Of a DNA stretch of 64,000 nucleotides, positions 30,101-35,623 are shown in pieces; position 1 is the stretch's first letter, and the number at the start of each line of letters is the position of its first letter. Origin of the DNA: an uncultured Verrucomicrobiae bacterium (GTDB lineage: Bacteria; Verrucomicrobiota; Verrucomicrobiia; Limisphaerales; Palsa-1400). Made by a program: the position numbers and the translations under genes. The notes beneath the pieces were generated by a model that was given only the letters and a program-made list of their open reading frames with translations, had not been told where the DNA came from and made no database searches. The DNA is taken from contig CAVPOM010000003.1 of the NCBI GenBank assembly GCA_963707025.1, forward strand, positions 291,750 to 355,749. The letters run 5' to 3'.

Positions 30101-30241
30101 GAGCAGGAGCGTAACGCGGAAAACGCAAAATGCAAAATGCAAAATGCAGGATTATAAATGCCGGAGTTTTAGTTTTCGGCGCCGCGCGTGGTCGGAAGGG
30201 ACGCAGGAAGCCGCATCTCTTCAATAAGCCAGAAGGATTTC

Positions 30242-30358
30242 AACGCAAAGGCGCGAAGACGCCAAGGCGCAAAGCTGGAAATTGCAAATCGCAAATTGTC
30301 AATTGCAAATTGTCAATTGCGTCGCTTCTGCGCCTTCGCGCCTCTGCGTCTTTGCGTT
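30242..30358. repeat. REPIN-like palindrome enclosing 7-mer tandem repeats
   Basis: aacgcaaaggcgcgaagacgccaaggcgcaaag ... cttctgcgccttcgcgcctctgcgtctttgcgtt; inner aattgca/aatcgca/aattgtc units. Confidence 0.8.
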
Positions 30359-30374
30359 AAAACCGTACGGACCT

Positions 30375-33300
30375 TCATAAGGTGGAAACCAACTCGCGGG
30401 CTTTTTGCAAGGCGTCGGGGAGTTTGCCCACCTCTTTGCCGCCGCCGCGGGCGTTGTCCGCCTTGCCGCCGCCTTTGCCGCCGACCAGCGGGGCGATGGC
30501 CTGGATGATCTTGCCCGCCTGGAATTTGGCGGTGGCGTCTGGAGAGACTGTGGCCACCAGGGAGACGGCCCCGTTGGACGAACCACCCAGAACGACCACG
30601 CCTTTGAACTGGCTCTTCAAGGCATCGGCCACGGCTTGGAGGAAATCGCCATCCACGGCGCCGAGGTTTTCGATGATGGCCTGGGTGGTCTGCGTGGACA
30701 TGGTGGACATCGTGGACTTGAGGAGGGCGTGTGCGGTTTCAGCGGCTTGCTTTTGCTGGGAGGCTTTGCGTTGTTTTTCCAGGTCTTTTTGCTGGGTCAG
30801 GAGAGAATCGAGTTTTCTCTCCAGTTCGGCGACGGGGGAGTTGACTTTGCCGGCCAGGGTGGAAATGAGGGTGGTTTCCTCGCGCGCTTTTTCGTAGGCG
30901 CGCAGTCCAGCCACGGCTTCGATGCGGCGAATGCCCGCGGCGACGGCGCTTTCGCTCACGATGCGGAACAAGCCGAGCTCGCCGGTGGCGCGGGTGTGGG
31001 TGCCGCCGCAAAGCTCCATGGAATAACCGTCCAATCCACCGGCGCGGCCGCCGATTTGCACGACGCGAACCAGGTCGCCGTATTTCTCGCCGAAGAATTG
31101 CATGACCTCCTTGCGGCCCTTGATTTGAGCGTAGGGAATTTCGGTCCAGGTGACGCCGGCGTTTTCGAGGATGCGCTCGTTGACCAGCTTTTCCACGTCG
31201 GCGACTTGGGAGGGAGCGAGCGCGGCGCTGCTGAAGTCGAAGGTCAGCTTGTCCGGGCCGACGTAGGAGCCTTTTTGGGTGGCGTCATGGCTGACAACTT
31301 CGTGCAAGGCCCAATGGAGCAAATGGGCGACGGTGTGATGGCGCTGGATGGCGGCGCGGCGCGGGACGTTGACGCGAAGCTCGACCTTTGCGCCCGGCTC
31401 CGGCGCGTCTTTGCCGGCCAGGAAATGGAGGAAGGTGTTGCCGGTTTTCTGAGTATTGACAATCTGCCAGATTTTTCCGCCGGCCTGAATTTCGCCGGTG
31501 TCGCCGACTTGGCCGCCCATTTCGGCATAGAGGGGAGAGGTGCCGAGGGTGACGGCTGTCTTGTCTTTGATGTTGACAGCGGCGAGGACGGTGGAGGAGG
31601 CGGTCAGGCGGTCGAATCCGACGAAATCGGTCGGATGGGACGTATCGAGGTTGGAAGCGGCGATGATTTCTTTTTTTTGGGCGGCGCGGGCGCGGGCGCG
31701 CTGCTCCTCCATCAGCCTTTCGAAATCGAGAGTGTCAACGGCCAGCCCGCGCTCGCGAGCCATAAGCTCTGTGAGGTCCAGAGGGAAACCATAAGTATCA
31801 TAAAGAGTGAATGCCCAATCCCCTGCAAAGAGCGGTTGCTTTTCTTCCATCACTTTCGCAGAACCTTTCGCGATTTTTACATACTCATCAAAGAACTTTA
31901 GGCCGCGATCAAGCGTCTTATTAAACGCCTCTTCTTCGGCCTTGATCACTTCTTGGACATGGGCTTGTTTCTTGCGGAGTTCTGGAAAGACATCCCCCAT
32001 GGTTTCGACGAGGACTTCCACCAGTTTGTAGAAGAATGGTTCGTGGAAACCGAGGGTGCGGCCGTAGCGGACGGCGCGGCGCAGGATGCGGCGCAGGACG
32101 TAGTTGCGGTCGGTGTTGGCGGGGAGAATGCCGTCGGCAATGGAAAAACTCAGGGTGCGGATGTGATCGGCGATGACGCGAAAGGCGATGTCTATTTTTT
32201 CCTGTTCGGATTGCAGGGGAGCGCACGCGCCCTCGCGTGCAGGGGTTGACGCCTCGTCAACCGCATCTTGAGTGTTCGGAGATGCCATCAGCGAGGGCGC
32301 TGATGGCGACACGCGAGGGCGCGTGTGCTCCCCGGAGGTGTCGGTCCACAGCCACGGGTAATCCCCGGTCACCTGCGCGACGCCTGCCTGCCAGGGATTC
32401 TGACAGATGTAATGGAACTTTTCTTCCATGTCGGACGCTCCGCGAATCATCCGGTCCAATGATTCTTGCGCCCAAACGTGTCCTGTCTGGCCGGAAATCT
32501 GGTTAATGTTATGGGCGCTGGCGGACTTGATGCCTTGCAGTATTTCGCGCAGCGGCCAGAAAACCGGCTGGCCTTCCTTGTCCTGTTCCTTGATTTGTGG
32601 CTCGAACAGCAGGTGAACATGGTCGGGCATGACACACGCGGCGTAGAGTTGATACTGCCGCTGTTCGTTGGCGTAAAGAATGCACTTGAGCACAATGTCG
32701 CGCTCGGGGGCGGCAAGTTGGCGGCGCTGGTGCGTGGAAAAAGTGACCATGTATTTGGCCCATGGTCGCTCGAAATGAGGAAGGTTGCGGCGGGAATACT
32801 CGGCCTCGATAACGCCGGACGGTCCAGGAGCCGACCGAGGGGGCGCGGTCGGCAACACGCGAGGGCGCGTGTGCTCCCCGGGCAGGGTGCTGGCGTATTT
32901 TTTGCCGCTGAGGTTTTCCAGACGGTCGAAGATGGGGCGGAAGATGTCGGTTTCGTAGTTGGAGATGACGCGGCTGAAATCGGTGAAATTCCTGGTGTTC
33001 TGCAGGATGCCCGTCACACGCTCGAAACCCATGCCGGTGTCCACATGCTGGGCGGGCAAGGGGGAAAAGGTTCCGTCGGGATTGGCGTTGAATTGGATGA
33101 AGACCAGGTTCCATATTTCAATGCAACGGGCGTCGCCTTTGTTAACCAAACTGCCTTTGGTGTCGCCGGCAGGTGTCAGGTCAACGTGGATTTCGCTGCA
33201 TGGGCCGCAGGGGCCGGTTTCGCCCATCATCCAGAAGTTGTCCTTTTTGCCGCCGTGGACGACGTGGACTTTGGGGTCCAGGCCGGCGGCGGAGAATTTG

Positions 33301-33782
33301 GCGGTCCAAAAATCATAAGCTTCCTGATCCAAGTCGCTGGGCTCGCCTTTGGCTTTGTCGGGGCTGTAAACGGTGGCGTAGAGGCGTTTGGCAGGGAAGC
33401 CCCACTTTTCCACGACCAGTTCCCAAGCCCATGCGATGGCCTCTTTCTTGAAGTAATCGCCGAAGCTCCAGTTGCCGAGCATCTCGAAGAAGGTGTGGTG
33501 ATAGGTGTCCAGGCCGACGTCTTCCAGGTCATTGTGTTTGCCGCCGGCGCGGATGCACTTCTGGGTGTCGGCGGCGCGGGTGGGCTTGCCGGGGATGGCG
33601 CCGGGCCATTGGTCAACGTCGGGCGCGCGCTGGTTGAGGAAAATGGGGACGAACTGGTTCATGCCCGCGTTGGTGAAGAGCAGGCCGGGGGAATCGGGCA
33701 TCAGGCTGGCGGAAGGCACAATGGTGTGCCCTTTGGATTTGAAAAAATCCAGGAAGGATCGTCGAATTTCAGCGGAAGTCAT
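30375..33782 (-). CDS. alaS: Alanine--tRNA ligase (1135 aa) with an in-frame RAYT insertion
   Basis: LFTNAGMNQF, HHTFFEMLGNWSFGDYFK, VDTGMGFER, RVIADHIR, HHTVAHLLH/CGGTH editing site, C-Ala GGKGGG. Confidence 0.98.
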   Translation of the reverse strand: MTSAEIRRSFLDFFKSKGHTIVPSASLMPDSPGLLFTNAGMNQFVPIFLNQRAPDVDQWPGAIPGKPTRAADTQKCIRAGGKHNDLEDVGLDTYHHTFFEMLGNWSFGDYFKKEAIAWAWELVVEKWGFPAKRLYATVYSPDKAKGEPSDLDQEAYDFWTAKFSAAGLDPKVHVVHGGKKDNFWMMGETGPCGPCSEIHVDLTPAGDTKGSLVNKGDARCIEIWNLVFIQFNANPDGTFSPLPAQHVDTGMGFERVTGILQNTRNFTDFSRVISNYETDIFRPIFDRLENLSGKKYASTLPGEHTRPRVLPTAPPRSAPGPSGVIEAEYSRRNLPHFERPWAKYMVTFSTHQRRQLAAPERDIVLKCILYANEQRQYQLYAACVMPDHVHLLFEPQIKEQDKEGQPVFWPLREILQGIKSASAHNINQISGQTGHVWAQESLDRMIRGASDMEEKFHYICQNPWQAGVAQVTGDYPWLWTDTSGEHTRPRVSPSAPSLMASPNTQDAVDEASTPAREGACAPLQSEQEKIDIAFRVIADHIRTLSFSIADGILPANTDRNYVLRRILRRAVRYGRTLGFHEPFFYKLVEVLVETMGDVFPELRKKQAHVQEVIKAEEEAFNKTLDRGLKFFDEYVKIAKGSAKVMEEKQPLFAGDWAFTLYDTYGFPLDLTELMARERGLAVDTLDFERLMEEQRARARAAQKKEIIAASNLDTSHPTDFVGFDRLTASSTVLAAVNIKDKTAVTLGTSPLYAEMGGQVGDTGEIQAGGKIWQIVNTQKTGNTFLHFLAGKDAPEPGAKVELRVNVPRRAAIQRHHTVAHLLHWALHEVVSHDATQKGSYVGPDKLTFDFSSAALAPSQVADVEKLVNERILENAGVTWTEIPYAQIKGRKEVMQFFGEKYGDLVRVVQIGGRAGGLDGYSMELCGGTHTRATGELGLFRIVSESAVAAGIRRIEAVAGLRAYEKAREETTLISTLAGKVNSPVAELERKLDSLLTQQKDLEKQRKASQQKQAAETAHALLKSTMSTMSTQTTQAIIENLGAVDGDFLQAVADALKSQFKGVVVLGGSSNGAVSLVATVSPDATAKFQAGKIIQAIAPLVGGKGGGKADNARGGGKEVGKLPDALQKARELVSTL
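32216..32880 (-). mobile_element. REP-flanked RAYT (Y1/HUH tyrosine transposase) cassette in frame within alaS
   Basis: RRNLPH, YMVTFST, CVMPDHVHLL (HUH, 32613-32621), VWAQESLDRMIR, YICQNP (Tyr, 32409-32411), DYPW; REP copies at 32855-32880, 32309-32335 and inverted at 32216-32240. Confidence 0.9.
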
Positions 33783-35564: not shown

Positions 35565-35623
35565 AGGATAGCTGCGGGCGGCGAGACACGGCCCGCCGCG
35601 CGCGGGGGCGGGTGCGCTCCCCG

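Follow-up and report, generated by a model that had tools for sequence, protein, structure and literature searches.

Insertion sequences of the IS200/IS605 family and IStrons use Y1 HUH chemistry on hairpin ends, with precise excision as their hallmark, and homing-endonuclease inteins place an in-frame nuclease in essential genes, are patchy among kin and bring about co-conversion of flanking sequence. The closest described relatives of the locus analysed here are the REPtrons and REPIN-RAYT systems, whose likeness to it lies in the Y1 fold, the HUH and tyrosine motifs, tetranucleotide-tagged REPs that flank the gene and are also scattered through the genome (28 copies), and inverted REP pairs. 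REP recognition and cleavage are described in the accessible text of PMC8266576, and RAYTs are presented in the available portions of two further reports as single-copy and not self-copying (10.1101/2021.07.10.451892, 10.1101/2024.07.17.603846). REP singles and dimers have been reported in frame within known genes, including tRNA synthetases, with intragenic REPs most numerous among the GTAG repeats of the verrucomicrobium O. terrae (main text of PMC3733652), and the TnpA-Y1 survey of Quentin et al., as far as its accessible sections go, set over-long proteins aside, taking them for fusions or errors of annotation (PMC6006769). Our literature search, from which supplements (for example the intragenic REP/REPtron lists of PMC3733652) and many subscription journals fell outside, turned up no account of a RAYT domain read in frame within a housekeeping gene; JGI automatic protein names do record the fused RAYT form.

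The window, that is, the whole 64,000-nucleotide stretch analysed from an uncultured Verrucomicrobiae bacterium, holds an alanyl-tRNA synthetase gene (alaS) in which a RAYT domain and three REP units are translated in frame. We use the name REP-A for the GGAG-tagged 6-bp hairpin core of these units, which reads as tag, two bases, 6-bp stem and 4-nt loop, a layout resembling that of the group 3 REP in the accessible text of PMC8266576. The features, in window coordinates, are as follows.

30375..33779, minus strand: alaS, a 1134-aa alanyl-tRNA synthetase with the cassette in frame (TIGR00344, 817.5 bits, cut-off 457)
32830..32880, minus strand: REP1, the opening arm, a GGAG-tagged REP core (32855-32880) with a variable second hairpin (32830-32853)
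32352..32777, minus strand: RAYT (Y1 HUH transposase) domain with no start or stop codon of its own (NF047646, 85.6 bits, cut-off 80)
32284..32334, minus strand: REP2, the internal forward copy, core 32309-32334 with its own 10-bp hairpin
32216..32262, plus strand: REP3, the closing inverted copy or arm, core 32216-32239 with hairpin 32244-32262
32216..32334, no strand assigned: coding REPIN, made of REP2 and REP3 with 70 nt between the cores
32335..32880, minus strand: 546-bp unit of one REP core, hairpin 1, the RAYT and linkers
35599..35622, plus strand: degenerate intergenic REP-A copy with 4 mismatches

The last of these lies just 3' of a gene that, from its translation, we take to be enolase-like.

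An earlier note on this DNA had described a 26-nt direct repeat at 32309-32334 and 32855-32880, 546 bp apart from start to start, with three side hairpins (32830-32853, 32284-32307 and 32244-32262) and all copies translated in the alaS frame, as GEHTRPRV in both direct copies and REGACAP in the inverted one; our analysis, including folding of the hairpins, confirms each of these points, as well as the inverted copy itself (24 nt, 1 mismatch), which occupies 32216-32239 and does not extend to 32240 as the note had it. The two direct-repeat units, adjacent hairpins included, align over 52 nt at 83% (repeat family D1), and the three REP matches of the window compare with 0.00 expected from 100 shuffles. 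For the REP2-REP3 pair the computed folding energy is -53.3 kcal/mol (z -9.7), and the pair's inverted cores (32216-32239 and 32310-32333), at 70 nt, lie well inside the ~130 bp below which two inverted REPs count as a REPIN. REP1 is without a stop codon in all six frames, the REPIN leaves a single frame open on each strand, and the protein stretch that it encodes is predicted to be disordered.

The source assembly, which is 88% complete, holds one alaS only. By alignment with solved AlaRS catalytic domains, the insertion site falls in a short variable loop, presumably a tolerant one on the surface of the enzyme, and across relatives this alaS loop is a general hotspot for inserts. A recurrent non-REP peptide of ~35-45 residues fills it, alone or behind a cassette, in L147-L153, L159, L164 and L172 and in P0058, P0061, P0068 and P0069, and L165 carries a 113-residue insert that resembles an Atl1/Ogt-type DNA-binding domain. 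Just 3' of alaS the window contains 7-bp tandem repeats (30120-30147 and 30280-30312), the second of them enclosed by the two halves of a 34-nt inverted repeat (30238-30271/30329-30362); in relatives L021, L028, L033, L163, L168 and L171 the alaS loop has low-complexity repeats of a similar sort within its translated sequence.

All four catalytic positions of the RAYT domain, His387, His389, Tyr457 and Asn461 of the fusion, are intact, and both histidines, the tyrosine and the asparagine are kept in 131 of 134 unique RAYT domains (the tyrosine in 134/134, with the profile built from domains first picked by their Tyr motif). In the seven pairs, out of nine, that allowed an estimate of dS, dN/dS is 0.07-0.18, as low as in the host part; at the level of sequence, these comparisons show that the RAYT domain is under purifying selection and its nuclease maintained. 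In an alignment-based model, in which the N-terminal AlaRS part is poor, the RAYT core reaches a pLDDT of 94-98 and both REP-coded linkers remain below 50, consistent with a separate folded domain on flexible linkers; its best transposase structure match is E. coli TnpA-REP (PDB 4ER8, E 8e-7, rmsd 3.3). The alternative single-sequence fold reached a pLDDT of only 37. Unlike members of IS200/IS605, the domain scores 21.8 bits against the IS200-family profile NF033573, below the cut-off of 55, there is no intron, and excision cannot restore an empty site (see below).

The cassette would also resemble inteins, in having an in-frame nuclease in an essential gene, a patchy presence and exchanged flanks, but it differs from them, as judged from its sequence, in carrying no splicing domain, in occupying variable loops and not conserved active sites, and in that its nuclease would be an HUH single-strand enzyme. 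Removal of the cassette from RNA or protein in the manner of an IStron or intein, which would render its reading frame incidental, is scarcely credible: we found nothing in its favour, neither an intein domain in the Pfam scan nor an intron family in the Rfam scan (which gave one chance match), the frame is kept in all 95 order-wide RAYT matches, and the RAYT core is modelled as a domain folding on its own.

These 95 close matches are spread over 79 of the 401 genomes sampled in the order, and every one lies in an open frame of 569-1398 aa, uninterrupted by any stop codon (one row, from G263, is unpublished); the RAYT domain was not found in the remaining 322 of 401. The same RAYT clade occupies three AlaRS loops and many other housekeeping genes, the common unit being a RAYT between inverted REPs, which is found also at the two other AlaRS loops and in ThrRS, PriA, MetH and RecG; a Pfam scan of 57 representatives among the 150 listed identified CarB, pyruvate formate-lyase, shikimate kinase, PurH, ThiE, BirA and ValRS as further hosts. 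Some AlaRS and MetH proteins carry two RAYTs, usually with different REP families (P0003, P0005-P0010, P0017, P0026, P0027, P0039). There are also short same-clade RAYT proteins with translated REP tails (P0148, P0149, P0150, P0161, P0167, P0169, P0179), possibly stand-alone REPtrons or fragments, and because such representatives may be stand-alone we restrict the term exclusively fused to the genomes searched. This is where the locus departs from known REPtrons: here the RAYT lacks its own start and stop and is translated inside essential genes, at many sites and in many hosts.

REP-A itself occurs in 28 copies at <= 4 mismatches in the source genome, almost every one with a second, variable hairpin behind it; the core is thus repeated, whereas the side hairpins of the window's REPIN occur genome-wide at this locus only. 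By a crude codon-bias score four of the 28 copies are clearly coding (three in alaS, one in hypF), one is ambiguous and 23-24 look non-coding. The hypF copy, a single REP-A unit translated in frame in an 876-aa HypF (L091, G000:C18:743092-743115), provides the other coding copy that the earlier note had proposed to seek in the proteome. REPIN-only alaS alleles and this hypF copy are of the same kind as the intragenic REPs and Rickettsia palindromic elements (RPE) already described; those reports, however, concern short repeats only, while here a transposase lies in frame and the coding REPIN is apparently its remnant. The genome's seven other RAYT-family matches have no REP-A within 1.5 kb, and no free-standing RAYT was found between paired REP-A copies in 10 regions from 7 genomes. 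REP-A is present in all six genomes with a REP-A-flanked cassette (26, 75, 9, 30, 15 and 3 copies). We rejected the fused RAYT as sole source of REP-A since some genomes in which the search detected no RAYT of the cassette's clade are rich in REP-A as well (G015, G028 and G041, with 19, 14 and 20 copies), an abundance that also counts against the cassette model favoured below.

We compared a tree of 142 RAYT domains with one of the host protein (182 of 198 sequences, 16 being without the anchor; 748 columns), both built with FastTree and midpoint-rooted, with many weak nodes. RAYTs group by REP family and not by host or site: clades B, C and D (support 0.845, 1.0 and 0.965) each extend across hosts, and REP families A and C are found at more than one site. 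In the host tree loop states are interleaved, and REP families alternate at one site among sister taxa. Unlike the vertical inheritance described for RAYTs, the RAYT tree here follows REP family across hosts and sites, with alleles exchanged between lineages. An ancient insertion followed by domestication and vertical descent, with diversity produced by loss only and by ordinary recombination, would fit the low dN/dS and stop-free matches reported above, as well as the description of free RAYTs as single-copy and vertical in the accessible text of 10.1101/2021.07.10.451892; we nevertheless hold it to be decidedly unlikely, given that RAYTs of one and the same clade sit in several loops and genes, that different RAYT/REP families alternate at one site among sisters, and that most relatives are without the domain.

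The loop could be read in 45 of 61 genomes searched, with 12 RAYT cassettes, 7 intermediate inserts and 26 short loops, one of the 45 states being judged from an alignment gap; the source labels of these relatives are Verrucomicrobiota and Limisphaerales. The window's genus by itself contains REP-A cassettes, a cassette of another REP family and, as the earlier note had anticipated for relatives, empty alleles (G002, G004). A locus pattern, defined as a closing REP-A copy beside the downstream alaS motif, retrieved 22 metagenome and 11 genome loci, among which three metagenome loci (L049, L052, L057) and none of the genome loci are REPIN-only, that is, have the REP pair and no RAYT; one more pattern locus has a broken frame. 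All three join the REP1 upstream junction straight to the REP2-REP3 pair, the architecture that results from removing the 546-bp unit 32335..32880 from the window. RAYT-less coding-REPIN alaS alleles had been predicted from the window alone, and they exist at the protein level as well (P0121, P0122, P0124, P0128); a protein search with a REPIN-only allele (89 matches) contributed P0122 and P0128, together with P0129 and three degenerate cases. In sequence, the REPIN-only alleles match the REPIN plus tail of the window at 89-93% identity. Close relatives hence display three loop states, empty, REPIN only and cassette, the last with the anatomy and catalytic residues given above.

RAYT-less alleles are also seen for REP families B and C (L093, P0130), and P0129, which branches within a group of RAYT alleles (support 0.958), has lost the RAYT by an internal deletion that involves no direct repeats. 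Loop inserts of 80-400 nt were located by pattern in 37 of 401 genomes, and the 30 that were read are other REPINs, low-complexity repeats and other peptides. A forward REP stands on both sides of the RAYT in 10 of 24 non-redundant RAYT-bearing loci, the nearest pair 540-627 bp apart and always at a multiple of 3, with one RAYT-bearing locus having in addition a 644-bp out-of-frame pair. L012 is a chimera with family B on the left and family A on the right, and L056, L058 and P0044 have REPIN-like blocks on both RAYT sides. REPINs without a RAYT occur at another AlaRS loop too. In the P0030 cluster the third AlaRS loop holds a hybrid REPIN that opens with an arm of family A and closes with one resembling family D, and in P0299, L079 and L087 the third-loop REPIN matches the REP family of the first-loop cassette; single examples such as these hint at same-gene seeding of REPINs. 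Frame breaks in or beside the cassette of L022 (G032) and L046 are either real or assembly errors.

Collapse of the direct repeats during assembly is a very unlikely origin of the REPIN-only alleles. All of these are on metagenome-derived contigs, with none among the 11 genome-collection loci, and in alleles of the L058 type repeats of ~125 bp could indeed collapse; the shared repeat, however, is usually ~26 bp, and two REPIN-only alleles recur in JGI and ENA assemblies (possibly from the same reads), on contigs of up to 262 kb and 43 kb. They also carry private substitutions, including in L049 a two-sided change in the REP2 hairpin that keeps the stem paired within coding sequence, and no RAYT-bearing twin was found in their 90% clusters. 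Read mapping in four runs at 82% likeness gave none that spans the locus (best DNA share 0.18), and no joint falls at the repeat among the 15 listed of the 22 joints from these runs. One contig in X20, left out of the argument, connects the alaS sequence on either side of the loop through 151 unread letters, which weakly hints at an allele that lacks the cassette yet is not empty.

The distribution of the hairpins bears on the order of events. The REP2 hairpin is restricted to a nested RAYT clade (support 0.96), with the exception of the chimera L012, and the closing hairpin is found in many cassettes without REP2, outside that clade. Because the closing hairpin is thus more widespread than the clade-confined REP2 hairpin, the REPIN most likely formed inside the cassette, and alleles with the REPIN alone would therefore be losses; in the host tree they occupy three distinct positions. 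In L011, L058, P0024 and P0044, REP1 and REP2 have become homogenised, an outcome that requires recombination between the two. REPIN-only alleles would most simply be loss scars, the RAYT likely having been lost between direct repeats. Since RAYT-less REPINs sit at another AlaRS loop, a REPIN can also arrive alone, and we only infer the direction of change, as a near-identical pair of a cassette and its cognate REPIN-only allele was not found among the alleles compared (the closest are ~85-95% identical in the flanks).

Two near-identical pairs differing in state are informative for gain, one of them at the protein level only, and in neither is a cognate REPIN the acceptor. L016 (empty) and L058 (cassette) are 98-99% identical overall, with 11 differences in the 100 bp upstream of the site, 10 in the next 655 bp and none in the first 228 bp downstream, the tail right after the site being different; further clusters of differences at other places in alaS (7 within 64 bp, 22 within 337 bp) imply that recombination was not confined to the site, and cassette gain is the simpler reading as a sister allele is empty. 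P0131, with an unrelated REPIN, and P0030, with a cassette, share an identical stretch of 665 residues after the site and show differences next to it. The exchange of the cassette together with flanking codons in both pairs points to recombination, and not to clean excision or landing-pad re-entry. Empty alleles moreover hold loop codons that are absent from cassette and REPIN-only alleles, so excision could not restore the empty site from a cassette allele. From these alignments, allele exchange of the loop with short flanks appears the better-supported gain route over landing-pad re-entry.

Such re-entry had been put forward in the earlier note, whereby the REP1-RAYT unit would be excised by the RAYT or by crossover as a 546-bp circle and would reversibly enter coding REPINs as landing pads. 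Of the outcomes that the note named as counting against it, a lack of REPIN-only or empty alleles in relatives and a lack of further coding REP copies are both contradicted by the loci above; excision products, the third point, were not seen. In a non-redundant set of 90 REP-A cassette alleles, sorted on the basis of peptide motifs and with a sampling bias to the query, direct repeats occur in 37 alleles, 34 of them in the same frame, as tandem entry of the unit requires, and 3 in different frames; 51 lack the internal forward copy (REP2) and 2 the upstream copy. The existence of REPIN-only alleles and the REPIN-like blocks flanking the RAYT in L056, L058 and P0044 also agree with reversible entry. 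We nonetheless consider it unlikely: the internal repeat on which it depends is missing in those 51 of 90 alleles, cassettes read at other AlaRS loops and in other genes are mostly a RAYT between inverted arms only, and one founding event suffices for the same-frame pairs, since later indels keep the frame. In both near-identical state changes the partner of the cassette allele is empty or unrelated and the flanks are altered, REPIN-only alleles of REP-A are seldom met (0/30 intermediate inserts read from the 401 genomes), and in E. coli REP-derived circles were not detected, according to the accessible text of 10.1101/2024.07.17.603846. Nor is the notion of a frame-preserving design with exactly spaced direct repeats supported, given the 540-627 bp spread in spacing, the 37 of 90 alleles with direct repeats, three of them in different frames, and inverted REPs as the basic unit; frame would be preserved because survival in an essential gene selects for it.

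Overall, we favour, with moderate confidence, a translated REPtron: a RAYT between inverted REP arms, in frame in AlaRS, with loss scars and allele exchange. The cassette would borrow the promoter, start and stop of its host, and as the whole of it is translated in an essential gene, presumably only frame-keeping arrangements survive. An extra forward REP would have arisen inside the cassette of a sub-lineage, creating direct repeats, between which recombination or slippage could then drop the RAYT and leave a stop-free coding REPIN as a scar, through host machinery perhaps stimulated by RAYT nicks beside REPs. Most gains and replacements of cassettes would come about when alaS alleles exchange the loop, along with ~10-35 flanking codons, and a smaller number when the RAYT transposes to new loops, an inflow that may offset losses and keep the nuclease under selection. 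We tentatively entertain a more active role as HUH-nickase homing, possible though doubtful, where the RAYT would nick single-stranded DNA beside REPs and promote copying of the loop, in a cycle from empty loop to cassette to REPIN scar to re-invasion; if so, housekeeping proteins would gain and shed a 150-residue domain without splicing.

RAYTs have been described as immobile, single-copy and vertical, and movement of RAYTs and REPINs is hard to catch. Here one locus displays all states, from empty through REPIN only and cassette to cassettes of other REP families and chimeras, with the reading frame as a built-in filter, and it makes the self-movement of RAYTs, the origin of REPINs from REPtrons and the source of coding REPs testable. 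For annotation, about a fifth of the sampled genomes in the order (79/401) carry a RAYT domain inside a long gene, and for the organisms themselves a gene that they need appears to acquire and shed an entire protein domain and yet remain unbroken.
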